A stretch of DNA of 63,317 nucleotides, filler included, from Lenisia limosa (GCA_001655205.1; 11 parts of 11 records of this genome joined end to end with filler, not necessarily neighbours in it), one strand, 5' to 3'. Shown: positions 6,654-60,370, counted from the whole stretch's first letter. Notes: generated by a model not told the origin, from the sequence alone. Translations and numbers: made by a program.

Positions 6654-9566
6654 CTATCCCTGCTGTTGGAGGTTGATCATGGCGGTGGTAATGATTTTTT
6701 CGTTCGCTTCACCAGGGAGGGCAATTTCTCGGGGCGCTGCGTGGTGTAAATTTGAAACAAAAAAAAAGCCCAAAATGGCTGATAACACACGAGGGTTGAT
6801 AACAACAAAACAAAGACCAGGCCAGTCGCTTTCGCAGCACCGCATCCCATCACTCCAGCGGGCGGGGTGGGGNNNNNNNNNNNNNNNNNNNNNNNNNNNN
6901 NNNNNNNNNNNATAGGAATAGAAGTTCTTGGGAACAATTGACCCTTCACATTCTGAATTCGACAGTCCGCCTCACCGATTTGGTTCTGAACGGAGAAGGT
7001 ATAGACTGCAAGAAGAACATCAGGACCTAGGCCGTTACATTCAACACATTTTAGTTACTCTTACAATAACTGCAATAAAATGGTTTCCAAAGTCAGACAC
7101 ACACCCCGTCCAGAGACAAATATATGATATGTCAAAAGTGTTTAAAAAAAGAGGTAACAACAAGCCCGAACCTACATAATATGTACTATTTAATGAAGAG
7201 AGATGAGAAAAACAAGCCATGTCATACCATACCTATAGCAAGGCCGGCCTGGGAAAGTGCCACAATACACTGCCGCAAACGAATCATGCGCCGCCTTACA
7301 TCAACTGAAGCTTCCTGGGGGGGGGGGGGCNNNNNNNNNNNNNNNNNNNNNNNNNNNNNNNNNNNNNNNNNNNNNNNNNNNNNNNNNNNNNNNNNNNNNN
7401 NNNNNNNNNNNNNNNNNNNNNNNNNNNNNNNNNNNNNNNNTTCGGTTAGAAAAAAGACTGGATTTATCGATAAATCCTCGAAAACTATCGATACTTTACC
7501 AGTCGTTTTCGAACCGAAGTGAATCCTTGGCTGGAAGGTTGTAAAACAAAGGGGAAAAGGGGGTGTGTATATCTTATGGGGGTATTAAGTTCAATAGGTC
7601 AATGACCCTTGCAAACCTCTGCAGTTCTACTCGCGCCTTCAACAGATTCCAAGTCAGCGTCCTGGGAGACTCGAATGAAAATGTACCTAAAATGTTACGA
7701 CATTCGGTGTTGATTTGCAACAGGGTAAAAGACTGTTATATTTGCATGAAGACCAAATCGTATAACCATACACCACAATGTCAAAAGAAAAAACGAAGGA
7801 GCACTGCATACCGCAGTTTTAACACCGCCATATTTATAGTAGCTGTATATCATTGCATATTAGCGCACCCATTGTTGCCGAGGATGATTTCGAGTCCGAA
7901 CGGGAAGGTATGGAAGTGCTGCTTGGACCGACGGATGTATGCCGACGGCACAACCACCATGATGCCCTCCTCAAGCTGTTTCGTGAGTTGGTCGGATTTT
8001 GTGATATTTATCACTCAATCAGAATTACGAAATGCAGTGACGATTTTCGTACCTTTCCATATTTGTCTCCTCGTGTCTGTAAAAACATAGCGTTATCCTA
8101 AGAAAAGTAAAAAAAAAATACGGGATATACATCTCAAAAATCAACCTGTAAATACCCCCATGTCAGAAAATAAATTTACTATTGAATGAATTACCCTTAT
8201 ACTGTGTTTTGAAATATGACTTACCCAAGCTGTATGAACCGTAAGAATAGGACTAGCTTCCTCAAAAACACCCTCACATCATTAATCTTTTGGATTTCTG
8301 CGGAAATAAGATCTCCTTCTTGGAAGAGATTTCGCATTTGAAGCGCATCATCCTGCGTTTTTCTCCGCTATAGCAGTAAGGATTGAACCAAGGTGGTACT
8401 CAATAATGAAATCAAACAAACTGCCGTCCATGTATGCCCTAGGTTTATATTTCATTAACTACCCACCAAAAGTCCACCGGGGAGATTCGTGCCTGAAAGC
8501 GGCAGGATTCCGTCTTGGCGACCCTGGATGTCGATGTTCCAGCGGTTTGCTCCGACCTTTGGGGTGAAAGAGGATTATTGCCCCTATGATCCCAATAATA
8601 TACGTAAGTACCTTCATATCATCATAATCTGTCCTGGTATTAGACAAGGTATATCAGACAATATGTGTGGTATTAGACAAGGTATATCAGACAATATGTG
8701 TGGTATTTTTTTTCATATGATACAACCGCATTTATACCTCAAAAGTTAATATCATGGGTATTAAGAATATGCAGAAATGAGAAATAAGGTAGTATCTGGC
8801 TGAATCCATTCATACTAATTTTAAGAATGTTTAACCCATCACCCATATATTGTTAAAATAAAAGAAAGAAGGGTTAATAATGCGAACCTACCTTCAACAC
8901 TTTGCCAACAACCACATCTCCAACGTCTCCCTGGTATCTGAAAAATCAGACATGGAGAAGGGGAGAGGGGGGTTAGTCCTTTACAATGAACAGATACTTT
9001 AGAATTACTGTTGTGTTGTTTAAAAGAGAGAGATAAAAAGCCTTTGCAGCCCTATTGAAAGAACTGCCCTTAATTCCCCCAACAATTCTTACACCTTCAG
9101 TGTCAACCCTCTTTTATCAAAACTCTCAATGTGAAAAATTCTTATTCTGTGTACTTGTCATCCAACAACCACCAGTATCCCTACCTTCCACTAATTGGCC
9201 TGACAGTAATTAGCTTGTTAATGCGATCAACAACACCAGCTGTTGTGGCAATGATCTTGCCATTGACTGTACGAACGCCATGTCCCCTAGTGCGTTAGGC
9301 AAAGAAACAATAAAATAAGATCAAATAAAAGGCAGAATAGTTCAAGGGTGCAGTAGAGAGTAAATGGTGAAAGACCAGAGCAACCACATACTTGAGATAG
9401 CCATCATCCCTGCAGATTACTTGGCCAGGGATCACTTCATCTTCAGAAAACTCGAAATCTTCACAAAGTCCTTCGACCCTGTTCCTAGAGATCATCAGAA
9501 AATAATCCTTGTGTCGCAATTCCACCCAAACCCTGAAAAGGCATCGTAGAACGAGACTGTCGACAT
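6654..9566 (-). CDS. RRP4: Exosome complex component RRP4 (EXOSC2), multi-exon
   Basis: Exons read VIPGQVICRDDGYLK-GHGVRTVNGKIIATTAGVVDRINKLITVRP, NRWNIDIQGRQDGILPLSGTNLPGG, RRKTQDDALQMRNLFQEGDLISAEIQ, GIMVVVPSAYIRRSKQHFHTFPFGLEIILGNNG and DVRRRMIRLRQCIVALSQ. These are colinear with RRP4. Stop TAG at 6654. Confidence 0.92.
6737..6860 (-). repeat. Family-3 element forming the 3' end of the last RRP4 intron
   Basis: The reverse complement ends ...TTTCAAATTTACACCACGCAG|CG CCC CGA GAA, in frame with the terminal exon. Confidence 0.85.
8632..8705. repeat. 33-bp tandem duplication in an RRP4 intron
   Basis: TGGTATTAGACAAGGTATATCAGACAATATGTG x2. Confidence 0.9.
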
Positions 9567-9886
9567 GGTAATATGATACAGGTCCACAAGTAGTCAATCA
9601 CCAAAAACCCAACACTTCCTTTCTCCCCTTAAAACAAAGTTTCTTGCTCAAATCACCAAAACAACACAAATTAACCGTAAAAATCGCTCAAAATTCAAAA
9701 CAAAACCATATGATCTATTGATCGAAGGTTTCTGTCATTTTGCTCTTTTAGGCGATTCCCAGTGTTTTAGGGTATTAATCACCAATAAACTGGTTAATAA
9801 ATTATTAAGCAACTGTGATAAAAGTAATTAGGGTAGTTAAGGTACTAATAGCCTTCAAGAAGAAGTGATCACTGCAGTTTCCAACG

Positions 9887-12800
9887 ATGGAGGGCGCCTC
9901 TCTTGGATCCCGAGTCGTTGTTAAACGCAAAATGCTACATGGCAATCTCAAACCAGGAGGCAACCCAGGAAAGAAGCAAGCCTCGACCAATTTCTATCTT
10001 CAAAAGCTAGCCAATCGAACACAATCTCTGTCCCAAGGACATGACGAATCTCAACCAGGCAGCCACCCCCTTTCAGTGGCAAGAACCGGCTCGCAACGAA
10101 GAGTGTCAACAGGCCAGTTCAACTCCGTCCTGCCCGAGGCTATTGAGGAGATTGAAGACGACTATCCTGAACCAATTGAAAACGCATTTGAGGTTCTCAG
10201 CGCCCGTTCAAACGCTCAGCAGGTTTGTACATTGATTTTGAACTGCCTATACCATAAGTACATTCTTTTCTTAGCTTATAGGTTGGTAAGATGCTGACAT
10301 CAGGCAACTTGGCTGGTACAGGACCAAGGAGAGCCACACCTCAAACTCACCTTCAACCCCCACCAGGACATAAACCAATTTCAGAAAGTGAGATACGGTC
10401 ATGTTGACTCTCCGTTTGCATATTATTACATAATAAGGGTGATCATCCAATATATGTATATTATATAAGTTTTTTGGCCTGACTCCATGACCCCATGAAA
10501 AAAAAGTGTGATTAAAAGCGTGATTTCAGCCTCACCCCATGACCCCATGAAGATACAGTGTGATATATATATGATATATATTGATTTTTAGAATATGGGG
10601 TAAACAAATACCCTTAAAAATCTTTGTTTTTCCATGCAATTACATATATTCAAACTTGTTTCTTAGTATTTTTGATATTATTGTCCATAACCGATGGGGA
10701 ATCAGTAATTTCACGAAATTCTGACAGTTTAAAAAAAAATCTCATTCACATCTGAATTAAAATCTTAAATATATCATATTACCCGCTGACCCCATGACCC
10801 CATGGTGTACTTTATATATATTAGATGACCACCCTATCCTATTTATATATTTTTAAAATTCCACATTGTAAATTTACCATTTTCAGTTCCTGCACGCTTC
10901 CAATTCCTCTTCAAATACCCCTACTTCAACCCAGTCCAGTCCCAATGTATGGACACCGTCCTTCGTACCGACTGCAACATGGTTATTGGTGCTCCCACTG
11001 GCTCTGGAAAAACAGGTGGGTTTACGTTTTGTTTTATAGTGTATACTTTTATTGTGTATATTTTTATCATAACATGTAATAATCCTCCAGTTGTTGCTGA
11101 GTTGGCAATGGTGAGGGTCTTGAACAAAGAAACTGATTTTGAAAACAGAAAGCCAGGAGCAAGGAAGGTAATCATCTCACTTTTATTTATCTTTAGATTG
11201 TATATTTGGCCCCAATTAAGGCACTTTGTCAAGAGCTTGTTGAAGGCTTCTCATCAAAGTTCAAAGACATCAACGTCAAATGCATTGATTATACTGGAGA
11301 TAATGATGATGATGATTTCTTTGCCTCAAAAGACAGAGTTAAAGTAGGATTGTTACTGGAACATTAATGTCTGCAAAAGGATCAATAATTAATATCAAGA
11401 AGATAAGCATATCTCAATTTACCTTCTCAGACGGCAGATATTATCTTCACGACGCCTGAAAAATGGGACAGCTTGACCCGAAAATGGAAGGACAACAGTG
11501 GAATTATGAGCCAGGTTGCCCTGCTTGTAATTGATGAGGTCCACTTGCTGCATGAGGTTTGTGAGGATGCCTCTCACTTTCAAAATAAGAATTTCTCTTG
11601 CATCACAAACTAGGAACGAGGTACAGCCCTTGAAGCCATTGTGAGCCGAATGAAAACTGCTCTAAAAACAGGCATCAGTGGCACAAACCGCATCCACTGC
11701 CGCTTCTTGGCTCTTTCCGTCGGAGGCTGGCTTCGGTCACTATTTCACCATGCAATTTACTGTTGATGAGAGTTATTCTTTCTGACACCCATAGGCAACT
11801 ATCAAAAATATTGGCGACATAGGTGAATGGCTCATGTGCTCACAGGAGGGTGTCAAGTTCTTCGGTGAGCTGGGTTATGTTTTCTGCTGAATTATCTTAA
11901 AAAAAATGTAAAGTTCAAATTGAGCAACATTCAAAAGCAGTATGAAACACTAACATCCACAGGTGACGAATACCGTCCAGTCAAACTCGACTTGGTGGTT
12001 CAGGGAGTCATACCGTCCAAAGCTGCCCAGGACAGCCCTTTCATTTTTGACAGAAATCTCAACTACAAGTTTGCTGTCTCCCAGTTTTCGTTTTTCGATC
12101 CAACCCTCTTTTGCTCACTTCCAGGATCTATCGAACAATTCAGAACTACTCACAAGACCGCCCGACTCTGGTTTTCTGCACTTCAAGAAAAGTAGGTAGT
12201 TATATTCATCAGTTGCGACGTTTTGTGTATCCTCTTATAATTAGGGTACCAGCCAGGCAGCCCAACAAATCATTAAGGATATGATGGGGTCAACAATGCA
12301 CATCAAAGATCGGTCACGTCTCAATGGCTACGCTGCGAGTGCTACAGATAAGACATTGGTGAACTGCATTCGAAACGGTATGTATGTGGTTCTCTCAACA
12401 ACAGAACTTCATCATATCGAAGTTAGAAATGGATGGTAACAACATACAATGAACACTAGCCAGGTTCCTTTCTGATTCTTTACTCTTCCAGGGATTGGGT
12501 TCCACCACAGTGGGATGGCCTTTGCAGATCGTCGTTTGGTTGAAGGCCTTTTCGAACGCTCAGAAATCATGATCCTCTGTGCCACCACCACTCTTGCTCA
12601 GGTATTTATGGAGAAGACAACAGTATTAGAATTGCATTTATTAAATTTGAACTTTCAAGCTGCCTTATTGGGATTTTAATAACACATTTCAGGGTGTAAA
12701 TCTTCCTGCAGGCCTCGTTATTATCAAGGGCACAAAGCAGTTCTCAAACAGCAAATATGAAGAAATTCCAAGAATGAACATTATCCAGGTTGGAACTGAT

Positions 12801-15800
12801 CAATTCTTACGTTATGACCACCACAACTGTATCCCTGTAAAATGTATTTTCACCTTGTGCACGCCTAATATCTGTTAACAAAATATATTGTTCTTGACAA
12901 ACACCAAAAAATCTTGAATCACAGTGCAGATGATTGGTAGAGCAGGACGGCCTCAGTATGGAGATACCGGCACTGCTATTGTCTTAACCACTCCCGATAT
13001 GGTCAAGAAATATGAAGAAATGCTGAGAGGTGGGCTCTCAAAAAAAACTTCACAGCAGTATTGAAACTCTTCGTCTTAACCTAATTCAGGAACTGAGGAA
13101 ATTGAGAGCTGCCTCAAGACAAAAATGGTGGAACATCTGAACGCAGAGATAGTGTTAGGCACAATCTCAAATGTTGATGAAGCCCTTATTTGGTAAGAGG
13201 ATGAATGTTTCTGGATTTCAATCATAAATTAGATGATAATGCCATTTTGAGATATTCCTTACTATTAGGTTGAAGTCTACCTACCTCTACATTCGAATCA
13301 TGAAAAACCCTCAGCACTATGGAATCAAAAACGTCTCAAACATGGTAAGCTTGATTTTACCAAGGCTCTATTGAATTGAAATTTATATGATGCGAAATAT
13401 GACACAATACAACTCCCAACTTGTACATAATTGACAGAGTAGAATGAAATTGACATGGTGCTCAACCAAGTGCTGATGGAACAACTCAAGAGTCTGGCTG
13501 AAGTTGGCCTTATTGAGTTTGACAGCAATCGGTTTCATTTCATCACAACTGAAATCGGTGGGCTGGTTTCCCTTAAATGGTACAATAAATGTTCTGATAT
13601 TGAAATGCTGTTTTTCATGACGTCATCAACCACCTTCTGATTAAATCCAAACTCTATACCAAAAAGAGATTCCAAACGTAAATTGGTTAACAAATCAGGA
13701 AAGTCACTCAGCCGATACTATGTCATGTTCGAGACAATGAAGCAGTTTGCTACTCTGAATGCTGAGGCGTCACTTCAGGATATCCTATTCAATGTGGCTG
13801 GTATGTGTCATAAATATTCAATATGGCGAAGATGATGTTTGTCTATGCAGGTAATTGTATTCAAAAATAGCTTAATACCCAATATTCACCCAACAAGGAG
13901 CAACTGAATTCGCACACTTGACACTGCGCCAAAACGAAAAGTCGCTCATTAACCAAGTCAATACACAACCAAATATCAGGTACGAAGGGTTGAAAACATT
14001 GTAACTTTCTATTGAGGATTTCTTTTGGGTTCAAATAACCTTATCGCCTTGTGATATGAAGTGCAATTAAACCAATCTTAACTGCATTCAGATTTCCGAT
14101 ATTAGACCCCAAAAAGAAAACTCCCAAGCCTGGCAAGGTCAAAGACAAGAACTCCAAGATTGCTCTATTAATCCAGGCGTCTCTCGCGGGCCTTCAACTT
14201 GACTGGTTGGTACTTATATTTGATGAAAATATGTATTATATTATAGACAGGATATGATTTATTATCAGAACTGAAGGTTAACATTTCCCAATTTGCCATT
14301 TATCTCATGTAGGACATTGGCACAAGAGGCCAGCTACGTCTTGCAGAATGCTCCAAGACTGACACGGTTTGTGGAGAACATGTTCTTTTGCCGGTCATCT
14401 GTGTTGAAGATGGTGTCTGACAAGCATAACATACGTCATTTTCAAATACACAGCTGTCTGATGGACTACAAAATGCATATGAAGCAGTTCAAAGCCAGTC
14501 ATGGCTCATTGGTACTTGGAAGATGTATCCAATCAAGGTCGTGGGAGGTATGAGGGCTGGGTGCTTACCAAGGACACTACTGTTTTCTTAATGTAATATG
14601 ACAGTCAATTGAGTGACGGACATGACAAAAACACGATTTTTTCTAAATAGGAATGACAATAATTGTCCTCATTTCATTAGTATGCTGAAAATGAGGTGCG
14701 TCAACTTGAAAAAATCGGACCCACATATTGTCAAAAGTAAGTGCAATATTTTCAAGCTGTCTTCACGCTTTTTCTTTCAAATACTCCTTATCATGACAAT
14801 CAGAATGACAGATGCAAATATTCGAAGTATGCTGACGCTGTCCATTCAGCACCCTGGCGCACTGGAGGCTATATTGGGCAGAAATCCCGGTGGGTAAATA
14901 GAACTGACAATTTGATGAGTATTGGAAAGCTACGGGGTATTATATTGAGATGAAGCACTTGTGTGGGATCTACCATTTGGAGTAACATATCGAAATTTAG
15001 ACTCATTAACAATACAATGCAGCTGACTCAGGAAAAACACGTACTTTACATTAGTTATTTTGCACATAACTAAGCATTTAGGATACCCTGAGCCCTTTGG
15101 TGTTAATATCGTTGAAGCAGCCAAGTCTGTTATGTCGCTCAAGGCCAATGTCAAAGTTGAACAGGTTTGTCTACCACACAGTTGGAAGCGTTTGGAGTTA
15201 ATCACAATCTTATTGTGAAACAAATGTAACGTCATCTCTCAGACCGACCGAAGTCCTCAGCAATTTGAGGCTGCCCTTCAAATCACGATTGAGAGAACTG
15301 AGGAGGATTACTACAGCAGCTCTGCACCAAAGAACATCACTGGGCGAGTTGGAGGAGGAAATGTTTTAACAATTTTATTTCATAGTATTTAAAATTGATG
15401 AAGCAGATTTCCGATACTACTTCTCACCGCTCAGTTTGTACTCCTAGTAGGCGACGCCTCAAATGTAATCGTTCTTCAAAAACGGTACGTTGTCTTCTGT
15501 TGGATTACATGAAGATTTTAACCCAAATAAAAGGCCTCAACCTCCCCTTCACCATCAGACTCAACAATCCGCTGCCACCACAGCAAGTGTACCAAGTGTC
15601 CGTCAACCGCAGTACTATTCAGCCTCCTCCACCAGCTCAGACCAAGGGCAAAGAGCAAGTCCAATCCCCCCAGCCAATCGTTCAGACTATCAAGGTGGGA
15701 TAAGCGACCCCGTAATTTGAACAGCTCAGTGATGTTGTGATTCAATTTACAACTCCTGTATATCTTTGTTAAAAAATGGTAAATGCTGTAAAATGACAAT

Positions 15801-18800
15801 TAACACTATAATAAACGCCAATTTTGTGTACTCGTCTGTATTATGCAATTGGACAACCTTTCATCTTCCAGGTTTCCCTCCTTCACGATAACCACACTTG
15901 TCTGGATACAGTGGTATCCTTCACCCCCAGGTATGTTCATTTTAATAATCGCAGTGATATCTTTTTTTTATTTAAAAACACCTGAGTATAAAATGCGTTG
16001 TTTGAGTTACCATTCAACTAAACCTTAATGCTTCAGTAAAAATCGAGACTTTTTGTTCTTTTGGAACTGAAGTGACCACAAGCCTACCTCCCATCCCTTT
16101 GACCCCCCAGATTCCATACCCCCCGTCCCGACCAGCTCAAAGACATGTTCCGCGCTCATCAGCCCGTGCTGGACACTTCTAGCCAATATTTCAACCAGCA
16201 GCAAGCAGGCCCGCCCCAACAGTCTTTCAGGCTTTATCGCAATACGCCAACGCAAAACGCTGCGCCAATTCCGCCACATCTCCGAGCCGGGGCCAGAACT
16301 GGACTAACCTCTTCCGACATGCAGAACCCTGAGATTGCCGGGATTCCTCCGATGACCAACTCCCCAATGACGATTGACCCCTCTTCCGGACAAAGTTCGG
16401 TCAATTCAATTCCGACTGGACCAGCCAAAGTGGACTCCACCAGTTTCAACAATTTCGACTGGAGTGATGATGATAATGACAGCATTGCCGCTCAATTGGA
16501 GGCCTTGTCCCCAAAGTCCAGTTTACAAACCCGGGCTGAAAACATTGCAATCCGCATGAAAAACCTTGAAAAGACTCTCAAGGAAGGGTTAGATAGTAAT
16601 GATTCTGATCCTGGTTGCTTCTCCGCATCATCACTCGAGAAACCCCATGATCAATCCAACAATACAATGTCAGCGGCCCAGCCCCCGAACCAAGTCCAAC
16701 CCCCTAACTATTCCAACAATGCCTCACTTGCTTCGAACCTTCCTGCATTCCAAAACAGCTTCCAATTCAGTCAAATGCCCCCAGCGAACCAGCAGAAAAG
16801 ACCTCATATTCCCTCGGCAAACTGCATGACGTCACAATCCCAACACAGCAATGGCCAAGCCCCGCCAGGCCAGAATCAACCCTGCACCAACCTCCAGCAT
16901 CCTCCCGGACCCACAGGACAACGAATTGGCAACAACCTCTCACAGATCCAGTCCTCACAGCTTCAAAACCTCAGCCAAAGCATGAAGCAGAATCACAATC
17001 CCCTTGCTAATCCAGGGTCTCAACCGAGCCCTTCCTTCACCCCAGGCAAGAAGCTGATAGTAGCTGTCAAGCCGCGCGGTGCTCCTGATCGGCCCTCTCG
17101 ACCGAGCCACACTCCAACAACACCGGTCAAACAAAGCCGCCAAGAAGAGCATTCACAGCTCTATGCCAAATCATGGAGCCATGTAGCCTCTAGCTATGAC
17201 CAAAGGCAGTTGAAGCAAAGTGACCCGACAATCACGCCGCCACAAGCTGCATCTTCCGCTCTAAATGGACCAAATCCTACCAGACCAAGTCACAAGCAGA
17301 ACAGTCATGAACACTCGTACTTCAGCCCGCACACCCCACCCTATCCATCCCAGTCTAATTACCAGGGACAAAGCAGCCAGCAGAATCAAGTAAGCTGTTT
17401 ATGATATCTTACCATTTAATGTGCCATTCTTGGACAACTCTGATAGCCCAATATTTGAAATCGAGTCTTTTCTGTATTTCATAAGAACTTGACAAAAGTA
17501 ACCCATACTAGATTCCACAGCCGAAGCTTCCTGTCATCCAGTCTGCACCCCTTCAAAGCATGCCGCTGCAGACCAACTTCGAAATGGCCAAGGTGAATGC
17601 TCCAATAATTCCATCACTTCGTTGTGAATTCATCTCTCAATGTTATTACAATATACTAGTATATCACTCAGTCCTTTCTACTTGCCATATTATAAATTGT
17701 CACATCACTTAAAAACTAACATTGGGTCACCATTCAGCCATTTGAGATTCCCAATGAATCGCCACTACCCGAGAAGACCACGCAAATTACCATGTCTCCT
17801 GACTTTAAGATGCCGACCACTAAACCCATTTTCAGTGGGTAGGGGGACAACGTGTATTTTGAAATTGATGGGTGACACTATTTAACAAACGTTCAATTTC
17901 AAAATGGTGAGTCATTTTTAATATTTTGTCCAATTATTCTACTGTCCCAACAACTTTGGTCACTTCCTCTGGAAACATCTTGGGAAAAATTTTCCATGAC
18001 CTCTTTTTATACCTTCAGATCCAGGTCACCAAAACAACGACAAAATAGCGACGGTGAGTGGAATGAAATTGACAATTGATCGAATACCCATCTCTCAATT
18101 CCAAAAAGCTCAATAATCACATGAATAGATATGAGATTGAAATGCCATTGTTAATGATGTTCCTTTCACTCTGCAGACGATCTCTCCACCCAAGTTCCAG
18201 CACTACAGACCACAAAGACCGCAGCCTTCTGGTATGCAAAGAGTTTAATACTGTTGTTAAACACGGTCAGAGACTGGCCCTTAACATATCCCAAAAAAAA
18301 CCGATTTAATTGAGTTTCCCTTCAGAGTAACCAAGTCAGAGTAACCAAGTCCAAAAACGTTGTGATCTAATATATAGTGCCCTTAAATCCTGACAAAACA
18401 GCCCCCTCAAACAATGTGAAGTCCCCGCCAAAGCCGAATTCTAAACCGCTTCAGCCCAAGGTAAGGAATTCCTGCTTCTTCAGGGCATGAAAATGAATTC
18501 CAATCAACTAACAACCAGACTACTTTGGTGGTACCCTATTTTTTTAATGGATAATATTAATATAGCAATGAGAAATAAAAAATTAGGTTGTATCTGGCCG
18601 CCGTCCACACCATCACGCTTTTAAAAGATATTGAATCATAGTCTAATATTAATTCACGTTTTACAACTCTGTGCACACAGCTTTCTGCGTGCCTCCCCAG
18701 CATACATAATAGTTTTATGACACATGTCGTCTTCTGGACTATCTGTAGTTTCTCTCAATTAATACACATCATTTGCACAAAAAAACACTTCAATTGAAAA

Positions 18801-19569
18801 TGTTTGATTTGAATTGTCACTTCAGTTTCACCAACTGACCTTCCCTCATTTGATTTGAATTGCCATTCACCCCCCACCACCACAGTTTATTCCGCCCAAC
18901 CAGTGTCGGAAGAACAAAGCAGATGATGCCGATATTGAGGTCACTCTTGACGACATCTTCTCGGAAGTGTCGGAAGTTTCGGAAGTGGAAGAGCCCAGCC
19001 CGGCTCCCAAGTCAAGCTGCCTCAAACAGACCCAGGTAATTTGGCCGATGTCATTGTGACACACTACGATCAAAAACCTGAAAAGGCTAGGAATGCACAT
19101 CATCTTTCCCAATACTAAAGCAGGTTATCTCCAAAATCAAATCCCCTAACCTCGCCACCAGCCCCTCGCCTCAAAAGCCTCCAACGCGATCTCAACCCGG
19201 GCCGTGTGGTTCAACAGCCCATCAGCGACCAAGAAAACCGAGCCCCAGCAATCTCAGCACTACAGCATGCCAGAAACAAACATCATCCTACCAGCGACCC
19301 CCAAGATAATCCCAGTCAAGTTTCCTCCTTCCAGGCCCACCCTTGGAGCCAGGCGGAAAACAACCCCGGTCAAAATACCGGAAAATAAAGTGCCAGTAAA
19401 CCTGCCCAATAAGGAAAGTCCCAAAAGAGAACGTCAACCTCCACCAGCGTCTGATTCCCCCCAATCTGTTACTGAATTCAAGCCCAAGGCCCAGGCACCA
19501 CTCAGTATTCCCATCTCCTCCACCTGGGGAACTTCAATGGGAAATTCCGATTTTGATGACTTGTTCTAA
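9887..19569 (+). CDS. HFM1: Meiotic Ski2-like DNA helicase MER3/HFM1 with Sec63 domain and a long low-complexity C-terminal tail, many exons
   Basis: NMVIGAPTGSGKT (motif I), TTPEKWDSLTRKWKD...VIDEVHLL-ERGTALEAIVSRMK, FGDEYRPVKL, FIFDRNLNYK, GFHHSGMAFADRRLVEGLF, CATTTLAQGVNLPA, MIGRAGRPQ and IESCLKTKMVEHLNAEIVLGTI...WLKSTYLYIRIMKNPQHYG. The phase-2 junction at 15930/16110 links it in frame to the Q/P-rich ORF 16145-17404. Confidence 0.9.
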
Positions 19570-19751
19570 ATATGGTATGTTGTGCACAATATGGCTGTAT
19601 ATTTATTTAATTCATGCTATTTGGGGGTTATCAAAATACTGCTAAGGAAACTGGGTTTAAGTTGTTTCAGCTAAATTATGATAGAGAAAGATCCGTGAAA
19701 TAAGTTAAACCACTACATTAAATAAATATCAAAAAAAGGAGACAGGATACT

Positions 19752-20407: not shown

Positions 20408-20507
20408 NNNNNNNNNNNNNNNNNNNNNNNNNNNNNNNNNNNNNNNNNNNNTTAATTAATTAANNNNNNNNNNNNNNNNNNNNNNNNNNNNNNNNNNNNN
20501 NNNNNNN
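20408..20507. other. Artificial scaffold spacer (N44-TTAATTAATTAA-N44; stops in all six frames)
   Basis: An identical 12-mer flanked by N runs occurs at 20452, 26107, 31267, 38648, 40130, 48583, 55463, 58923, 60419 and 62104. Confidence 0.97.
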
Positions 20508-31862: not shown

Positions 31863-31959
31863 TAGGGCTTCACTTAGGTTCAAAAAAAGACTGAATTTAT
31901 CGATAAATCCACGAATTATCGATATTTTGCAGGTATTTTTCGAACCGAAGTGAAGCTTA
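31863..31959. mobile_element. Family-1a MITE in a NOP2 intron
   Basis: Perfect TSD AAAATAAT (31855-31862, 31960-31967). Confidence 0.88.
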
Positions 31960-31989
31960 AAAATAATACAGATTACCCCCAACCCCGAC

Positions 31990-40185: not shown

Positions 40186-43100
40186 CAAACAAAGCCCAGG
40201 TCAGTCGCTTCTGCATCATGGGGGTAATACAGTGCTATGCATGAAATATGAAAAGGGTGAGTGGTGAGGGTCGGGAAAAAGCAATAAGATTCAGCAACAA
40301 TAAAGAACAGATGGCATACCTTGCGATAGGACATGAGAGAGATGCCTGGAAGTTTGGAGGCGGTAACAGACCATGGATAATGGCGTTATTAGCATCATCA
40401 TCAGGGGGACAATGGAATCTGTCTTGCGTTAATGCCCACAACTGAAACCGATTCCACCATTCAACATTACACCCCACCCCCCATAAAAATTATACATTGA
40501 GACGAGAAATAAAACAATATTGGGTCTGGCCAAAGCCCCAGGCTTACAAGCGTCCTTCGTAGTCCATGCCCGGCACAGAGTAGGCGCCCTTCACCCGAGC
40601 AACTGCCTGCACCTGCGGGAAAGGGGGGGGGAGTGNNNNNNNNNNNNNNNNNNNNNNNNNNNNNNNNNNNNNNNNNNNNNNNNNNNNNNNNNNNNNNNNN
40701 NNNNNNNNNNNNNNNNNNNNNNNNNNNNNNNNNNNNNNNNNNNNNNNNNNNNNNNNNNNNNNNNNNNNNNNNNNNNNNNNNNNNNNNNNGAATATTATAC
40801 AACAAAGATAACAACCTCAACCACACCATCAATAAAAGCCACACCCCCTCATACATGAGCCCGGTATCCGTAAGGCTCCCATGCGTCAACAATGAACTTG
40901 CCAATGGCTGAAATCATAAGTTCAGGCACGGCAAAGCCCATCATAACAAAGTTCAATAAACCATCACAAGAGAGATCAATAAACCCGCAGGGCCCACAAG
41001 TTGCCAAATCAGACACTGGGGGGAGGAACACCACATCTGCTCGCGGCAGAGCGGTGGGCGGAAGAACTGCCCGGCCTGGAGTATCAGAGTAGGGTTGAAA
41101 GGGAGTATCAGTGAGTGCAATGAAGAGTCACCCCCACCGGCTGGGTTGTGCAGGGTGGCGTAAGTGGACTTCAGGGATGAGGGTGCCCAATCCTCGTTTC
41201 CATTGTAGCGAATGTTCCAAAACCTGGGGATTGATAAGGGCAAAAACTAAATACTAGAATCTGAGATAACCACAGTACGTCCAATATTAAACAGTGAGTC
41301 AGTCCATATTTATAAATCTATGATTAGTTTGACTAACCTGCTGTATTCAAATGAAAGCTCATCTTCATCTTCACCTTCTGGCTTCTCTGAATCTGAATAG
41401 TCATAAAAGTGATGGAAATCGATTGAAACACGTATTCAAACCGAGCAGCCATACGTTCTTCATCAATTTGAATATCAGCAATGCACCCCCCCACCGTTCT
41501 GACTAGCCTCCAGTTTCGAGGTCTCAATACCGCGGAGCATGAGGGGCTTATCAAGCCGCACGGACTGCAGCATTGACGACGAAAGTGTCACTCCGGCCCG
41601 GGTAGTGGCTCCCTGCTGAGGTAAATACTTTGGTATTACAGGTTTAGTGTTGCTGTTGTTTTGTATATTTCTACATTTCTACCAACAAACGTATCAAGCC
41701 AAACAAAACAACTCTCAACATTGGATGTATGACACATTATGGCCAGTATTTGATTTTGTAACTATTCAAAGTGAACTGAACTGAACTAAACTGAACGTAC
41801 CAGTTGTCTGTCAGTTGCCACATCATCCTCAGGGAATGTAGGGTGCGGCTTGCGCGGCTTTACTGTGGTCATATTTGGTCCACCAGTGGAGTGGAACCTA
41901 GAGGGAGGGGGGTGAAAAAATAGTATAAATCAATACAAAGTGGTGGAGGGACAGTAATACCACCTCCACCCATTTTCATTTTAATTGGATAGGGAAAAAT
42001 ATGGTTGAAGCCATCACCATTTCTTCTAGTGATGATCAGAATGCTTCAGCCTGACAACCGGACTTCAGCCTGACAACCCACCTATACGGGGGACTTCAGC
42101 CTGACAACCCACCTATATGGGGACGCGGCTCTGGAAGTATCCAAAGACGTGAGTGCGGTTCGGGTGAGTAGGGGCGAGGGGCGAGACTCGGGAATAGTCA
42201 GCATTGAAGTGGACAGCGCGCCCTTTTCTTCCTCTTCTTCCTCCTCAAGTGCTGGTCTNNNNNNNNNNNNNNNNNNNNNNNNNNNNNNNNNNNNNNNNNN
42301 NNNNNNNNNNNNNNNNNNNNNNNNNNNNNNNNNNNNNNNNNNNNNNNNNNNNNNNNNNNNNAACTAGACAATTGGTCATGTAATTCACTATTTTGATAAA
42401 AACTCAGATCACTCTCAAGTTCCATCATTTAATATCATTAGATCCGCCCGACTCGTCCCCCGGAGCAGGGTAGGCTATGGCAGTGGGTGTAGCAAAGTCG
42501 TTAACATCCAGGGAGGCTGAGGGACACGCCAGTAGGCCTGAGGTATCACCAACGAATAAAACGAAGATACCGACAGAAGGATTCATTCAGAAATGTATTC
42601 TTTGTGAACTGAAGGGAAGACCATTGAGAATTATAAATTATATAGATGTGAAATAAAACAAAGTTGTTTTGGTCAAAGCCGTCCACTCCAGCACACTTAC
42701 AAGAGATATTGGATTATAGTATATTGGATTATAGTTAATTCACCCAATCATTTGCCTTTTTTTTTTTTTTTTTTNNNNNNNNNNNNNNNNNNNNNNNNNN
42801 NNNNNNNNNNNNNNNNNNNNNNNNNNNNNNNNNNNNNNNNNNNNNNNNNNNNNNNNNNNNNNNAGTTGAGGGATGAGGGAGGGGACAGCACTGAAAGTCC
42901 CAGACTTCTTCTGATGGTATAAGAAAATGCCAACAGTTAAGGTGTGTCAGAACAATTCAATTCCGTATTCACTCTCACATCAGAGCGGACAGCAACGTCG
43001 AGCTCCAACATTAAGTCCGAAATAAGCTGGCCAGTTTCTACAGAGTCAGGCATGAGGTGTGGTAAACATGCAGATTGGTGACACTTTGAAGTAACTTTGC

Positions 43101-46600: not shown

Positions 46601-46843
46601 TGTACTACCATATATCGCAGACTACTGCTGTTTTCATAATTGTTCTACCATATATCTCAGACTTGGAGAGTTTCCAATCCCAGTATTAAAGAGTTAATGA
46701 GAGGGTTTACAGTGATTTGTTTGTGATTATTTGTCTTCCACATTTTTGTCTATAAAATGAGATTGGCTGATATCGTAATTTACTCTCAACCCTCACAGAG
46801 TTGACTTTGGGCGTTTTTTTTGTTTTACACCCCCCCCCCCCAG

Positions 46844-48639: not shown

Positions 48640-51150
48640 CCGGACCGAAAAGACGTACAAAGCCCTCGGTGGCATGGCATCGGAATGCAAAGTCAGCGAC
48701 AAGAACGTCCGTGCCGTCCTCGTCTCTAAGGGGTTGGAGGGTTGTTTATTGCACCGTCTATAAGGGGTGAGGGTTATACCATCCACAAGTGGCCTAAGGG
48801 ATGGGATGACTTTATGTTGTTCCATTCCGCTTACTCACATGATCATATCATAATACTATTTCAACGCAGCATTAATATTTTGCATTCAATCGAGGAACAT
48901 CTAACATTGCAGTAACACGTCCCACTTGGTGTCTCCTGATGACCTGCAGCAGTTCAGTCACGTGGGTATTGGTGCTATTTCGTCAAAACGGAGTTATTTT
49001 TGTGTCAGTCGTGCTCATAACTTTTACACTCCTACCTCAATATTTATTCCTCCACCCAGATTTTGGGTTCTTTTTTTTGTTGTTTACCCCCCCCCCCCCC
49101 NNNNNNNNNNNNNNNNNNNNNNNNNNNNNNNNNNNNNNNNNNNNNNNNNNNNNNNNNNNNNNNNNNNNNNNNNNNNNNNNNNNNNNNNNNNNNNCCGTGC
49201 GCATTTGAGAAGGCTCTTTGTCGGGTCAAAGTGGGGTGGGGGCTTCTGTTGACTTATTCATTTAGGCGTGATTTGGGGGGGAGGAGGGGGGCTTCATCAT
49301 TTACTCTTTCATTGCTTCTCATTTCTGTACATATCGATAAGGATAATGATACATCCTGGTTTTATTTCTCATCTATATGCCTGCTATTCTGCATTTTGTC
49401 TCACCATTCCAGACTCACAGGACCGACTTCTGAGATTCTTGAGGTAGGGTTATTGATGTCCTCGGTTCGATCCGGTTAAACGCCGGTTAAATTTCCATCC
49501 AGATATTCATCTTTTTAGGACGATAATGACTTTTGGCTTAATCTGATTGTAATGCATTTACCATTGCTTTTCTTTTCAACTAAACCATAATTTCTCAGCT
49601 CCCCCACGGTGTGAACTTGGTACCGAAGGATGGTGGACTTCTACTCCTCTGGAAAGGTATGCTTGTACCATCTTATTCTGTCGGATCATCACAGTGTTTT
49701 CTCTCTGGCATGTCACCAAGTAGCTGCAGTTCCGAAATCCATTGCCTTATATTTATATTCCAATAGCTTCCATGTTTACGTTTTTTTTTGTTTCATAAAT
49801 TTTCCAATTTTACTCCCCCCCCCCCCCCNNNNNNNNNNNNNNNNNNNNNNNNNNNNNNNNNNNNNNNNNNNNNNNNNNNNNNNNNNNNNNNNNNNNNNNN
49901 NNNNNNNNNNNNNNNNNGCCCTCATGGCACTCCAGTCGTCTCCTGAGGCCGCCCGGGGTGGGTGTTAAGGGGGTTCCCATGGTGCAATCTGGATAAGATG
50001 TTTGATATGGAAGAGTCATCTCACTGAATGACACTTCATGAAAAATTTGTGTGAATCGATATAACAGACTCTTTTGGCATTTTTCTATCAAAGTATCATA
50101 ACGAATTATTTTAGCATAAAGCAAATCGACCATTCATCTGCGTTTCTCTTCTCATATGTCTAGCCATCCCCTACGAAAACGACGTGCTTATCAAGGACTC
50201 TCCGGCTGATATGGTAGTAACCAAGAAGGTAATGAGGGTAACTTTCTTTACCCCTTTTCTACGCATTCCTTCTGTATCTGCTTTACCTTTTTTTTTATCT
50301 TTTTCCATAACCCAGTTCCACATGTAATTGACATTGCAGGAGAACAGCGTGGTCGATTTCGATGATGAGGAGGGAGAAGGTGGCATTGAGCGCCAGTTGG
50401 AGATGGAAGCAGAAAACGCGAAACCAGTGCCGGTGGGTGTCAAACAAGGGACAGTAAAAAGAATGCCGTTTTGTTGTGCTGACTTTTTTTTTTGACTGCT
50501 ATTATTTTGCACAATAATCTATCCACACCATGTTGACCTAAAAATGATCACCTAGATCCTGTCGGACTGGGTGGGAATGCGACAGAACAGGCCGCTCGAC
50601 CCGTCAACCGCGACCGCCGCAATGGCGTCTGTGTTGAGAGAGTTCTTTGATGAGGTCATTGCCGATACCAAGGCGGTCCGGTATGGGGGTCTTTTCTGTA
50701 TAATACTATATGAAATAATATAGCAACGAGAAATAAACAATAAGGTTGTATTGGCCGAAGCCGTCCACATCATCACGCATATATACAAAGAGATATTGGA
50801 TTATTATAATATTAATTCACTCAATTATTTTGGCTTACAACTCTGTGCACATAGCTTCTGTGTGCGTCCCCAGCTTACTTTTGTCTGTAGTATCTGGCCG
50901 TTACTTTTCAGATTCGATGTCAACGGTCGGCCGGTGGCGTGGGACTTGGAAACGCGACAAGTCAGAGCAGGGCAAAACATGGACATTTCAAGCATCCAAG
51001 TGGGGTGGTGGCTTTGGTTGTTTAAGGAGAAAGAGATTGTTTTTTACTCGACGATCATAAAAAAAAAACCCTTTCATAGAGTCGTTCTGGACAATTAACA
51101 CTCCAGGCCATTTGCAACCAGGCCGCCGCAAGTGTTCTTCCCGTCAATGT
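48640..51150 (+). CDS. Hypothetical multi-exon gene fragment
   Basis: Exons RTEKTYKALGGMASECKV, DSQDRLLRFLE-LPHGVNLVPKDGGLLLLWK, YENDVLIKDSPADMVVTKK-ENSVVDFDDEEGEGG and ILSDWVGMRQ...FFDEVIADTKAVR-FDVNGRPVAWDLETRQ. Confidence 0.5.
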
Positions 51151-53253: not shown

Positions 53254-55208
53254 ATGTTGTCGTTAGCATCTAGACTTGCTAAAAGTGGACTACAGAATGT
53301 TACACGCCCAGTAATGGGCAGTTTTCTCAGAAACTTCCACAAGGTTGAGCAAAGTACCATTGGAGGCTTAAATGTTACTGATCACTACTATGATGCCGTT
53401 GTTGTTGGAGCTGGAGGAGCAGGGCTCAGAGCAACAATGGGCTTGGCACAGGAAGGCCTCGATGTTGCATGTGTCTCAAAGCTTTTCCCCACACGTTCAC
53501 ACACAGTTGCTGCCCAGGTATTTTTTAGGAGATGAGTTTGTCGAATTTATTTAGTGAAAACATCATCTGGTCAATTAATGTGCTCTAGGGTGGTATTAAC
53601 GCTGCTCTTGGGAACTTGACTACTGATGATTGGAAATGGCACGCCTACGACACCATTAAGGGCTCTGACTGGCTTGGTATGTTCCGTACATTGTTCTTCT
53701 GATCACTTCTGTCCTTGCTTATATTGGGAAATTGCTCAAATAATTTATATATGGCGTTTCGGACAATGGTTTATTCGCTCTTTTGAGGAATTCAGTATTA
53801 CTCCGAATGATTCGCAAGCTTTATGAATAACTCCTATTCTTGATACATCAGGGTATTTGATTTCTGGTGGACTAGTAGAATTTAAGACTATCGTGTCTAT
53901 TTATTTTGGAGGTTTTCAGCTTTGTTTCACGCAAATCATATTGTTGTGAACATTCTCTGTGGTTTTTTTTTTTTTAAGAGAAATGGCATTCGATTACGTG
54001 ATACAAATCCATGGAGATGTAGAGTGCCGGTGACAGGAAGAATTAGGGACTTTGAATACTCTTAGTTCTAGAAATGAACGAGTGAGAGAGCAATCCGAAA
54101 CAATTTCTCTTACTGAGTAGGTGACCAGGACGCCATCCACTACATGTGCAAGGAAGCTCCCAAGGTTAGTGTCATTCTCGTTGGTCGTTAAGGACAGTCG
54201 TATTGAGAACTTGCTCTTTTTGATCAGATATGGTATGTTATACTAGCCTATTCCAATGCGATGAAAAAGTCGTTTTGTTTGAATGAACTAAGCAAACAGC
54301 TTCATTCATATTGGGGTTTTGTTTGAATGAACTAAGCAAACAGCTTCATTCATATCGAGGGTTTTGTTTCATAAGTTTCCAACTCCCACCCCCAGGCAGT
54401 GATTGAGCTTGAGCACTTCGGTGTTCCCTTCTCACGTACTGACGAGGGTCGCATCTATCAGAGGGCTTTTGGTGGCCAAAGCCTGGAGTATGGCAAGGGT
54501 GGGGGTGGGGGGTAAGAGTATAGCGAGCTGAATCACAGACATGGTCTCACCCATATAATATATTCTTACGTTTTCAGGTGGCCAAGCTCGTCGTTGTTGC
54601 GCAGCTGAGGATCGAACGGGACACGCCATTCTGCACACCCTTTATGGACAGGTGGGGGCACAACTACAGATCATATTATGAAGTTGACAATTCAATTGGG
54701 CAGACAAGAAGGATGAATTCTTGGGTATGTATGTACTTACTGTTCCACTGGCAAGTGTTATTGCCTGGACACTTTCCTCAATCATGAATGTGTATGAATG
54801 CCCTTGAGTCCTTTGTCTTTCCCATATTTCGGCTTGATATAGCTTTCTGCGAATATCATCATCCTGTCCCAAGAGTTGGGTTTTTTGTTGTTTCACCGTT
54901 TTTACCCCCCTCCCCCCCCAAGGCACTTCGCCATGATGCCCAGTTCTTTGTGGAGTACTTTGTTCTCGACCTCATTATGCGTGATGATGAGTGTATTGGG
55001 TAGGCTGTGTNNNNNNNNNNNNNNNNNNNNNNNNNNNNNNNNNNNNNNNGTAGGCTGTGTAAAGGGGGTAGTAATCAAACAGAATGCGACCAGATCAAAA
55101 TGATATTCACACTTATTGGCTCGTTGACTTTTTAGTTGCATTGCTGTGGACATCCAGACTGGAACGCTCCATCGATTCCGCTCAGACCACACCATTCTGG
55201 CCACTGGG
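53254..55208 (+). CDS. SDHA: Succinate dehydrogenase flavoprotein subunit, N-terminal part, truncated
   Basis: [81 protein letters not shown] and HTILATG; mitochondrial-presequence-like start. Confidence 0.97.
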
Positions 55209-58200
55209 GTGCGTCAAAGGGGGCTGATAGTAAATTTAAGCACATATATATTTATTTACTAACTATGTAAGTTTTTGGACTTCCCACTATATAATAACAG
55301 ACAAGATCATTCGCTTAATAATCCATCATCAAAGTACAGATATAATGAAAAGGACGGGTTCGCATTGATTATCGTGTTTTGGTTCATGATTAGATCCTTT
55401 GCATTGTTTTCTTTTGAANNNNNNNNNNNNNNNNNNNNNNNNNNNNNNNNNNNNNNNNNNNNTTAATTAATTAANNNNNNNNNNNNNNNNNNNNNNNNNN
55501 NNNNNNNNNNNNNNNNNNATAAATTTAATAATGTAATTAAAGGCCTTAAATTTCAGAAAAATATAAGCTCAATTTTGAATAACCAAAATTTCAATAACTT
55601 AATCGCACCTGGATGATTTAACTCTTTTAATGCGATATTCCTCACGTTTAATCAAATTTACTTTGGACTAAATGATTAAATTAGTTATAATGTTCGTGTA
55701 GCATGAAACGGTTACTATGCTGTCCCTTTCTTTCTTCCTCTCAAGTCTACTGAATGTTTTTTTATTTTACAACGAGCCTATTTCCCTGACGCAGGAACAT
55801 GCTATAACGCTACCTCCACACACTGACAATTCCAAATATGTAGTAGTAGTATACATATAAATAATACTACTGCTGCATTTTTGGAATTGTCGGGAATTTG
55901 GTAATTTGCGCCAAAAAGTCGAGCTTTATATCACGAGCCTGCCAAAGTCATTTAAAAACTGATTCGACCATTTTAAGGGTTTTATGGGTCTGGCTTTCGG
56001 TTTCTAACGTCATTATCAGTTTTAAAGGGCTGTGGGATGAGAAAAGGCTGATTTTTCGACTTTTAAAACCCTGTTTTCCTAATTAGGCAAGTAAGGAACT
56101 TTCTAGAACTTTTGGGGTCAAATCCCCAAAAATATCACAAAAGTTATGTTACTTCCGCAAACTTTTCCGGGAATCTAAGAAAAACTTGAAACACCAAGAA
56201 CAGCAAGATTTTTGGACCTGTCTTTCAAAAAAGGGACCCCAGGCCCAGGATACAAATTTTCCTAGAATTTTAAGGAAATTTCCAATTTGGTCATTGTTTA
56301 GAAAATATTTCAGTTTTTTGTTTTCACGTTTTTAGAGGCTAATTTCTAAAAAGAACACCCAAAAAGCGGGTAAAAGCGGGTTTAGTGTCGCTAGTAATAA
56401 TGATACGATGTCCCAAAATTTGGTTAATATTACGTTTAAAAAAACAATAACTAATTGTTTTGAAGAAGGAATAATTGTCACAGACAGTAAATCTTACCGG
56501 TTTTAGCCCAATCACATCTGGGTGTCTATACCAAAACGGGTACACATCGATTTCCTTCTGATGAAATTAGACGAAAAGCTTGATATTTGAAAGAAACAAG
56601 GATTATGATGTCTCGAATATCTTCTCAGGGTACTACTAATATGTTGAACGACACCATTTCAATCTACAGCAGGCTATCATCATACCTGTGCTCTTTTATA
56701 TTTTTTTAGGATTCCATGGTAGTCATCAGCAGTTTCTATTTTGTTCGACGTCACTAGTCAAATTAAGATAAATAATAGAAAAAAGGTAACCAAAGAGGAC
56801 TTCAGAATCAGCTTTGTTAGTAAAGTTAATACAATTAATAATCATGGAGGTTACAGCCGGCTGTTCTACTTAATAATAGACATATCATCCGTATCTAACC
56901 TGTTTGTCCTTTGTGCCACGCTCCAAATTCAATGTCTTGAGTATCTGAAAAAAACATTAAGGTCTATGATAAGGCTAGAAACAGGTTTTCAATTGCAGAA
57001 TAGAACATACCAGAACAACTTTCTTCTTCAATCGGTGGCTTTGTAAATTTGACAGTTTTACCTGTTGTGATTAAGTATTCAATATTTCAAGACTTCACTC
57101 AAGGCGTTATTCATTTTCGATTCCAAAAAGACTAATTCTCTAAATATAACGGATAATAACTGGGTAATTACATGAACAATTAATCAACAGTTAAGTAGGA
57201 AATATTGCAATAAGAAACCAATAATATGCACTGATATTTCAAATTTTGTAAATCTTTCCTCAAAAATTTAATTACACATAGCCCAAAATAATAACTCCAG
57301 TACTTTGAAACCGAAAGTAGAGCTCAAAAAGTCCCCTTTATTGGAACGTTCTATTACATTTTGTGTAAATAACAGAAACCTGAATCCACTAACATCCTTT
57401 GAAGTTTCTTAAAAACGGCAATATTAGGATTATGATTTATTATATTATGAATTCTCATCTGTTCTCAACCACAATCTAACTATGCGATTGCTTTCTCCCA
57501 CCTTTATTGATGATTTCTTCAAATGTCAATCCCTGAGAGAGTTAGATTTTAATCATAAAAATGATAAGACTTGATGCCCAATTTATCCGTTTCACAAATT
57601 TCTGTAACATTTAGCGAAAACTGTTTTATGTTTTGCTAAAATCCGTGCTGCAAAATCATAGTATACATATAGAGTATGTATACAATGTATATATGAATTA
57701 TTACATAGTATATTATATATTCAAAAACTTGTGGCGCTCCACATTTCAATACCAACAAAAAAAGGGTAATAAAAAATTAGAGCTGTACAATGCGCAGCAG
57801 AAATCCTCCAAAATAGTGTTTTCCTGCAAAAACAAAATGCTGGTTTCTTCCGCGAAAAAGCAGTTTTACTGCGCGAGAAAATAGGCAAATATATATTATG
57901 TACATATATTATGTATAGGTGACCATACATGAACGCGAACACTCACATGAACGCGAAAGCTTTTTAAAAACATACAAAAATCCGCAATTAGATGTGATTT
58001 AAATCATCATTTTTACACAATAGGTCAGTGCATAAACAGGGGCCCAGTGCATAAAAAGGGGCCCAGTGTTCAAAAAATGGTGATAAATGAGCCTTTACAG
58101 GACAGGATTTTAATATTTTGAAAAATGAAGCTTGAGAAAGTTGGAATCATAAAAAAAAAAATTTCGAGTGTCGAAAATTTTCGATAAGTCCAGTTCGTCC

Positions 58201-58209
58201 AGTTCATTT

Positions 58210-58670
58210 CCCTTTTTGCGAGTTTTTTTTCTTCTTCTCAGCCTTTTTCAAGCTGTCTTATTTCTATGCAATTCTCGCAATTTATGTGAAGGTTCCCTTT
58301 TTGCGAGTTTTTTTTTTCTTCAGCCTTTTTCAAGCTGTCTTATTTCTATGCAATTCTCGCAATTTATGTGAAGGTATGCGAAGGTACAAAATTAAATTCT
58401 GAATCGTTTCCCATTAACATAGTGTCTCATCCTTCCTTAACTGGAAAGCAAGAACCCCCTTTAGCAGTTTAAAGAACCATCAGAGTAGGCATGGGTGCGT
58501 TTTCCCTATTTTTCTATATTTCTGTTTTTTTAAAACTAAATTAAATACAAAATTCAATTCTGAATCGTTTGAATCCCATGAACATAGTTGTCTCATCCCA
58601 CTAGCCCTCCTTAACCTGGAAAGCAAGAACCCCTTTAGCAGTTTAAAGAACCATCAGAGTAGGTATGGGA
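58210..58670. repeat. Two successive tandem duplications (~80 bp x2 and a diverged ~110-120 bp x2)
   Basis: CCCTTTTTGCGAG...GCAATTTATGTGAAGG occurs twice; TTCTGAATCGTTT...GAACCATCAGAGTAGG occurs twice. Confidence 0.85.
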
Positions 58671-59931: not shown

Positions 59932-60230
59932 GTTTGCTGGATTTACAGGAATTGATCTGCATCATCATATCAAGACAGATTTCTGTTGATGGTTATTAAC
60001 GCAAATGGTCATACAATTACCCGGAGACGGATTGGTTGTTTTCTGGATGTTGTATGTTTGTGTTCTCATTTGTGAGACATTCAACATTGTTCTGTGGACG
60101 GTTTCCTTCTGATACGCAATATCCCTATATGTGTGATGTGAGGTGTAAACGGCTTCGGCCAGGTAGTAGTATTTTGGGACTTTCAGGAATAATTAATAGT
60201 GGTTATTGCTCCCCTCGACCATACCCACGT

Positions 60231-60370
60231 TGGAGTGTGGGATGCGTTGCTGCAGAAGCGACTGGCCGGGGCTTTGTTTGTTTTGTTGCTATTAACTCTC
60301 GTATGTCGTCAGCCAACAGAGTTGATTTTGGCTTTTTGTTTCATTAATTTTCCAATTTTACTACCCACAG
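60231..60370 (+). repeat. Family-3 intron 3'-terminal element, most complete copy
   Basis: TGGAGTGTGGGATGCGTTGCTGCAGAAGCGACTGGCC-GGGCTTTGTTTGTTTTG-[AACTCTCGTATGTCGTCAGCCAACAGAGTT]-GATTTTGGCTTTTTGTTTCATTAATTTTCCAATTTTACTACCCACAG; at least 16 related copies in the window. Confidence 0.85.

Follow-up and report, generated by a model that had tools for sequence, protein, structure and literature searches.

A 135-base, high-copy repeat, which we call family 3, lies in the introns of Lenisia limosa genes, sense to the host gene in every copy found in the 63,317-nucleotide stretch of genome GCA_001655205.1 analysed here (the window). We propose, with a probability of about 0.45, that family 3 is copied from an RNA template into the C-rich acceptor tracts that existing introns already have, helped by selection. 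A preliminary description of this DNA had seen in the repeat a mobile cassette whose terminal AG is the 3′ splice site itself, spread by a splicing-linked route or merely retained where useful. That observation is largely right and unusual, and a mobile, acceptor-linked cassette is also the best reading here; however, retention by selection alone is disfavoured, and "the end is the splice site" is to be narrowed to "a branch-like end close to AG".

The window is eukaryotic, rich in introns, and made up of 11 contigs. Between them stand 10 artificial linkers (20408-20507 and nine other places), each a 12-base all-frame stop with 44 N on either side, and N gaps are frequent next to runs of C or G. 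The strand and position of family-3 copies were measured in this one window. Two runs of one study were compared with it: X1, contigs of a kind not on record, which holds 0.99 of the window's words and is possibly its source, so that it does not count as independent; and X2, which consists of poly(A) RNA contigs and for which the comparison covered the window stretches 31323-38603 and 60170-60374. The acceptors at 6737, 26436, 31083, 46843, 54395 and 54922 lie outside these two stretches.

That the repeat, given earlier as ~140 bp, is real was borne out by a profile built from eight copies, from which the C-run and AG were excluded to avoid circularity. Scanning the window with it gave 13 loci at 16 bits or more (the eight seeds and five non-seeds), against a best score of 0.4 bits in the reversed window and a single match above 10 bits (19.8) in 20 local shuffles; all 14 matches of at least 5 bits are sense to their host. 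A further four loci (49060, 49781, 54359 and 54872) consist of the tail alone; they score 32-59 against a maximum of 26 in 63 ordinary intron ends, three of them exceeding these ends narrowly (32-35 vs 26). Two other pieces, at 34778 and 36250, were indistinguishable from ordinary intron ends and were left uncounted. The total is 17 loci, the 16 already described plus that at 26375-26427; four of the 17 are cut by contig ends or gaps, and identity among copies is 76-96%.

Beyond the window, 4,978 X1 contigs match the fullest copy (60229) at 80% identity or more, and loose contig ends occur at the head in 178 and 54 X1 contigs. Summed X1 depth on the fullest copy reaches 808,954 against 41 in the flank; such depth is no copy number, but, divided by word overlap, it suggests a rough floor of ~600 copies. 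An exact head pattern had no match in metagenome, genome or viral contigs, Rfam returned none at gathering score (one chance match at E 4.8), and a tRNA search of family 3 found none. Sense C-runs at 347, 7317, 23966, 26048, 40623, 51208 and 63305, whose upstream sequence is lost in gaps or contig ends, likely hide further copies of family 3 or of the related family 3b described below.

Host strand is given by Pfam, homology or RNA for 12 copies (6 genes) and by hand-built models alone for 5 copies (4 genes). The RRP4, VPS13 and ankyrin hosts are Pfam-supported and the SDHA host is supported by homology; BBOF1 and NOP2 are names from the preliminary description, their strands fixed by X2 contigs and open frames, and the BBOF1 model from the start codon to 36370 measures 546 nt, the same as the span in the RNA contig. 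(The SDHA database protein P0001, from window position 53254 onward, reads through the first introns with TGA as tryptophan, and looks like a gene-calling artefact.) All 16 copies described earlier were found again and are sense, and so is the seventeenth (17/17, P 1.5e-5; by gene 10/10, P 0.002); none lies outside genes, although ~10 of 59 kb lies outside gene spans. The two control repeat families do lie both ways, as had been claimed: family 1 has 12 copies on the same and 10 on the opposite strand, with one more outside genes, and family 2 has 3 and 4, with two outside genes and an inverted pair within one BBOF1 intron (family 3 against pooled controls, Fisher P 5e-4). Genome-wide there is a hint of orientation only, in that 19 of 20 positions upstream of the head are pyrimidines in the consensus of 178 X1 contigs.

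Position within the intron is restricted too. Nine copies lie in introns assembled at both ends, and in these the AG follows the last conserved base after 9, 9, 11, 13, 15, 18, 23, 32 and 61 nt; for a tenth copy (32835), whose acceptor falls within a gap, the distance exceeds 70 nt. TTTAC stands 9-18 nt before the AG in 6 of 10 bounded introns. Family-1 elements are often within 40 nt of the donor but, in the eight copies measured, which were chosen from introns with known ends, never less than 75 nt from the AG, the gaps being 75-447 nt (Mann-Whitney on relative position, P 3e-4 against family 3). Conservation of family 3 ends at TTTAC and gives way to a C-run of varying length or a short unrelated spacer that differs by copy, so the AG that had been assigned to the element need not belong to it; a C-run also follows the tail genome-wide (75 and 76 X1 contigs). 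The motif TNAC is found at -20..-7 in 44/57 ordinary introns against 17/57 further upstream, and the TTTAC of family 3 falls within -20..-7 in the six close cases. This enrichment suggests that the conserved end resembles the branch site of the organism: judged by its sequence, TTTAC looks branch-site-like, and it may be used as such.

X2 RNA directly confirms two acceptors, 37320 and 37779. The latter lies 61 nt past its family-3 copy and closes a piece of family 3b, and, judged by depth per bin and by record length, the AGs at 32735 and 34829 appear to be unused, the second of these preceding, together with a C-run, the copy at 34831-34940. Family 3 therefore does not simply end at the acceptor: the claim that it sits at the 3′ splice site holds as to nearness to the AG, but the element ends at a branch-like TTTAC. 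Of the six acceptors earlier said to open an exon in frame, 37320 stands and 37779 stands as the end of family 3b; 54395 and 54922 fit SDHA homology but follow only weak 26-33 nt pieces; 6737 is predicted by the hand-built RRP4 model; and 46843 is a candidate acceptor with a putative reading frame. A C-run acceptor at 35998 had the top score of all sites tested, yet is apparently skipped for 36016.

Family 3b shares 18 of 25 columns with the family-3 tail. It is sense in 3/3 pieces (the host strand presumed for one), stands directly behind family 3 twice, and the same pairing, family 3 and then 3b, recurs elsewhere in one X2 contig.

The 5′ edge of family 3 is sharp, at ~60229 in the fullest copy, and the sequences beyond it are unrelated and pyrimidine-rich (178 X1 contigs, agreement 0.46). 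The complete head is present in 3 of 17 copies, the other 14 not being gap-cut on the 5′ side, and the tail is kept in 13/13 assembled 3′ ends. A fixed 3′ end with nested 5′ truncations is the pattern of a short interspersed element (SINE) or retroposon, although selection could yield the same. Within 25 nt upstream, CCCC occurs in 8/13 copies, whereas it is present in 3.6% of 25-mers from intron interiors and in 4.6% of acceptor tracts of ordinary introns, and several of these C-rich flanks look like relic branch-plus-tract ends. Head-to-tail joints are present in X1; recombination between two similar T-tracts gives a copy of the 26375 type, and the same type appears in X1 joints. No terminal inverted repeats were found: what follows the tail in the X1 contigs is a C-run and not a complementary copy of the head; an inverted-end match of 6 nt is confined to one copy (37320). 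The stem-loop reported earlier is present but without covariation (0 of 12 pairs changed on both sides, among 10 copies 76-96% alike, which gives low power) or sign of structural selection: the folding of whole copies does not surpass that of shuffled sequences (z 0.1 to 1.7, one -1.3; excised stem z -1.9), and the copies yielded no consensus fold.

The 5′ halves of the host introns had been called unrelated, and we agree, as the donors share only the usual GT signal. The family-3 head sits 47-297 nt inside these unrelated introns and one host position is common to other eukaryotes; the conclusion that family 3 is no whole-intron introner thus holds. That position is the SDHA intron 54652-54922 (phase 0, after TLYGQ), for which a pattern scan gave 95 matches in 94 metagenome loci, with an intron at the same site in 40, 1 contiguous and 54 unresolved; since the pattern demanded GT, the scan shows that the position exists elsewhere, not how frequent it is. 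A same-site intron in other eukaryotes means that the position predates family 3, and in this one host tested the new position expected of an introner is not seen. For donors and acceptors in general we used 65 ordinary introns curated by hand, a set that omits introns ending in gaps, including RRP4 7616-7315 with its C13 acceptor, so that its count of 0/65 introns with a C5 run understates C-runs. GTGGG begins 16 of the 65, and G-run donors occur at 30880, 36371, 37034, 54652, 35312 and 54499; donor G-runs could pair with acceptor C-runs.

Table 1. Family-3 copies, pieces of family 3b and the two control families in the window.
Feature	Position	Strand	Setting
Family 3, full head, shortened tail	6746-6859	-	last RRP4 intron 6975-6737; AG 9 nt on
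Family 3, deletion between T-tract repeats; not in the preliminary description	26375-26427	+	AG 26436; hand-built host model only
Family 3, head-less	30991-31051	+	ankyrin-gene intron 30880-31083; AG 32 nt on
Family 3, middle part, cut by contig end	31323-31388	-	NOP2-like host
Family 3, head-less	32744-32835	-	AG 32735 apparently unused; family 3b, then C-run into gap
Family 3, lacking ~20 nt of head	34831-34940	+	intron 34619-34963; AG 23 nt on, behind own CTGAC
Family 3, full head, remainder in N gap	36525-36559	+	
Family 3, head replaced by family-1 element	37216-37307	+	C-run, then RNA-confirmed acceptor 37320
Family 3, across N gap, then family 3b	37566-37718	+	RNA-confirmed acceptor 37779
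Family 3, middle part, cut by contig end	38557-38603	+	directly 3′ of C-run
Family 3, partial head, cut by contig end	40186-40219	-	after TTAC and C-run; hand-built host model only
Family 3, short copy	46786-46828	+	C12 run, AG 46843; host and frame from hand-built model only
Family 3, tail-only piece (weak)	49060-49087	+	C-run into gap; acceptor-like AG directly 5′
Family 3, tail-only piece, 96% identity to long copies	49781-49813	+	C-run into gap
Family 3, tail-only piece (weak)	54359-54384	+	SDHA intron 54165-54395; AG 11 nt on
Family 3, tail-only piece (weak)	54872-54904	+	SDHA intron 54652-54922; AG 18 nt on
Family 3, fullest copy, with head, two T-tracts, stem between them, and TTTTAC	60229-60361	+	VPS13 intron; candidate AG 60370; contig end 60374
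Family 3b, tail related to family 3	32675-32737	-	stacked behind family-3 copy
Family 3b piece	37719-37761	+	leads to acceptor 37779
Family 3b piece	38872-38923	+	runs into gap; host strand presumed
Family 1, ~100-bp element with long inverted ends, MITE-like (miniature inverted-repeat transposable element)	23 loci, e.g. 4701-4800, 61491-61592	both	
Family 2, 120-160 bp repeat	18559-18704, 38040-38241, 42639-42758, 50716-50877	both	

We propose that family 3 is likely a non-autonomous mobile element whose template would be the 3′ part of an excised intron RNA. Such an RNA would have a fixed 5′ end, extend to the branch region and carry a C-rich tail. Where another acceptor tract is nicked or broken, this tail would pair with its G-rich template strand and prime copying there; priming by the C-tail would fix both the strand and the place of insertion, and an early stop of copying would leave head-less copies. 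The incoming TTTAC might then take over as branch site, so that splicing survives, with the AG usually kept or supplied by the host intron, while antisense copies would import a strong false acceptor and be removed. The fixed ends, the nesting of 5′ truncations, the C-rich targets and the stacking of copies all fit a template from an intron's 3′ end that is primed in an acceptor tract. Going further, we suggest tentatively, and at less than even odds, that family 3 stands for a class of elements homing to the interval between branch point and AG of existing spliceosomal introns with intron RNA as template, possibly descended from a guide RNA encoded in an intron. If so, such an element would overwrite the branch sites of hundreds to thousands of old introns, and C-rich acceptors made by earlier copies would become the targets of later ones.

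Several observations weigh against copying from such an RNA. In the two fullest copies TTTAC is not followed by a C-run, and in 4 of the 10 bounded introns the AG is 23 to more than 70 nt away. Target duplication was not found beyond what composition gives (permutation P 0.09-0.53; 8 copies, 2 of full length); a clean 7-bp direct repeat flanks the 60229 copy, but mismatched flank pairs do as well. An A tail is absent from family 3, and no partner reverse transcriptase was seen in a search that covered the reading of the window and its list of open reading frames. Only 18 poly(A) RNA contigs match family 3, with a depth of 2-12 among those listed. The missing heads could have been deleted after insertion, with selection preserving the tail; the evidence that host introns are old comes from one host, holding a weak 33-nt piece (54872); and position and orientation derive from one window of repeat-broken contigs.

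Copying at the level of DNA is the alternative that we take most seriously, although we consider it doubtful. At breaks in C/G tracts, repair would draw on another acceptor as donor, through templated insertion or gene conversion, with C-tract microhomology on both sides, and selection would remove antisense copies at donor G-runs. This needs neither enzyme nor RNA, it accommodates the C-rich tracts on both flanks and the want of a target duplication, and long C-runs are indeed sense at intron ends as long G-runs are at donors. However, the sharp 5′ edge with unrelated flanks is unexpected from tracts of random length, and, with G5 donors in 6/82 introns, 0/17 copies are antisense at a donor. 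An ordinary short transposon, inserted at random and surviving only where it is sense at an intron end, since either orientation brings a cryptic acceptor, seems to us distinctly unlikely. In its favour, the tract that closes the head in antisense scores as high as the 99th percentile among 328 decoy AGs, unused AGs near copies score high too, and orientation bias made by selection is known for L1 and Alu (PMC3828378, in the part available). Selection alone nevertheless predicts many intergenic copies and none is seen (0/17; rough P 1e-4 to 8e-4, scaled by the control families and assuming 150-200 introns), which makes targeting likely, and the C-rich upstream flanks are left unexplained. A SINE of the usual type finds no tRNA or Rfam match for a tRNA-, 5S- or 7SL-derived head, and the internal T-runs would stop RNA polymerase III.

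That family 3 is, or descends from, an intron-encoded box C/D guide-RNA family, with strand and distance to the acceptor reflecting its processing, we regard as improbable. It would account for GTGATGG, 5-6 nt inside the 5′ edge, which we take to be C-box-like (6/7 match; the full GTGATGA is in one X1 contig), though the window contains RTGATGR 125 times, a single microsatellite accounting for many of these. It would also account for two sense segments complementary to human U6 small nuclear RNA, one of them followed by CTGG or CTGA. Positions 60247-60261 complement U6 nt 5-19 (13/15) and 60350-60360 complement nt 25-35 (11/11), as compared by eye with the human sequence printed in PMC4457786 (from the part of that paper available). 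The two segments are in swapped order, they were noticed post hoc, and the estimated chance is ~0.02 for the 11-mer and 0.03 for the 15-mer with two mismatches; the complementarity may be due to chance, and we treat it as a lead to ancestry only. Against a guide RNA there are also the lack of an Rfam match, a 3′ end without a D box (no CTGA directly behind the tail in the aligned copies), the absence of the full head from 14/17 copies, and the folding and covariation results above. Least probable of all, and very much so, are introners in decay, their 5′ halves having since been exchanged or enlarged. These would explain the near-inverted ends of one copy (GTGTGGG ... CCCACAG) and an excess of donor runs of five or more G among hosts (4/17 vs 2/65 ordinary introns, P 0.015, post hoc), but the head lies deep inside unrelated introns, one of them at a shared position as described above, and the consensus head lacks the +5 G present in 60/65 donors.

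Other features of the window touch family 3 less closely. A helicase gene at 9887-19570 (+), presumably MER3/HFM1-like by its motifs, has more than 25 introns, most of which are short (the model gives one, 11168-11196, a length of 29 nt), and contains no copy of family 3. A TGA microsatellite lies at a contig end (20130-20407), and short tandem duplications at ~54280-54357 and 58190-58400, one of them directly 5′ of the 54359 piece. Weak Pfam hints were a fibrinogen C-terminal domain at 4308-4448 (+, E 0.013) and a RasGEF N-terminal motif at 2234-2314 (-, E 0.1). The top "inverted repeats" of the window are a product of the artificial linkers.

Considering known systems, the exonisation of Alu and other SINEs proceeds through an antisense element that provides a pyrimidine tract and an acceptor. 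Family 3 is like this in being a probable mobile element that would supply a pyrimidine tract and acceptor signals in one orientation. The genic bias of Alu/SINEs is, however, ~1.2-fold, with few copies at splice sites (PMC3828378, as far as its available text goes), while family 3 is sense in 17/17 copies and makes no new exon. Family 3 also resembles MITEs, here family 1, in being short, high-copy and intronic in the same genes, but family 1 has long inverted ends, lies in both orientations and keeps at least 75 nt from the AG. With introners it shares high copy number, non-coding sequence and compatibility with splicing, and some introners carry one splice signal and co-opt the other (available parts of PMC9860276, PMC12130899, PMC11282704 and PMC7789003). 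On the same accounts introners make whole new introns in exons, whereas family 3 lies inside existing introns, has no donor and alters the 3′ end only.

The closest likeness is to type-2 small nucleolar RNA (snoRNA) retroposons which, in the available part of PMC1687206, are intron RNAs that were retroposed after maturation of their 5′ end and that carry downstream intron sequence until close to the branch point or 3′ splice site; they too include truncated copies, often lie sense in introns and cluster with other mobile elements. As described there, their tail is A-rich, they are flanked by a duplication of ~14 bp and their snoRNA is known, and that part does not describe placement at acceptors. 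In family 3 the tail is a C-run or missing, a target duplication is not supported, Rfam gives no match, and the position at the acceptor is tight. By analogy, family 3 most resembles a type-2 snoRNA retroposon, but, lacking a D box, an A tail and a supported duplication, is not established as one. A literature search, judged mostly by titles and the openings of abstracts, gave no paper describing a sense repeat at acceptor ends, although a genome paper or its supplements may mention one. If our proposal is true, family 3 would show wholesale turnover of branch sites and acceptor tracts, and leave traces in DNA that can be counted, which would bear on the open question of whether genomes take up copies of excised intron RNA. 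Known splicing-linked mobile elements create introns, as introners do, or occasionally donate a splice site, as Alu does; the rewriting of the 3′ ends of old introns, genome-wide, would be a third route.

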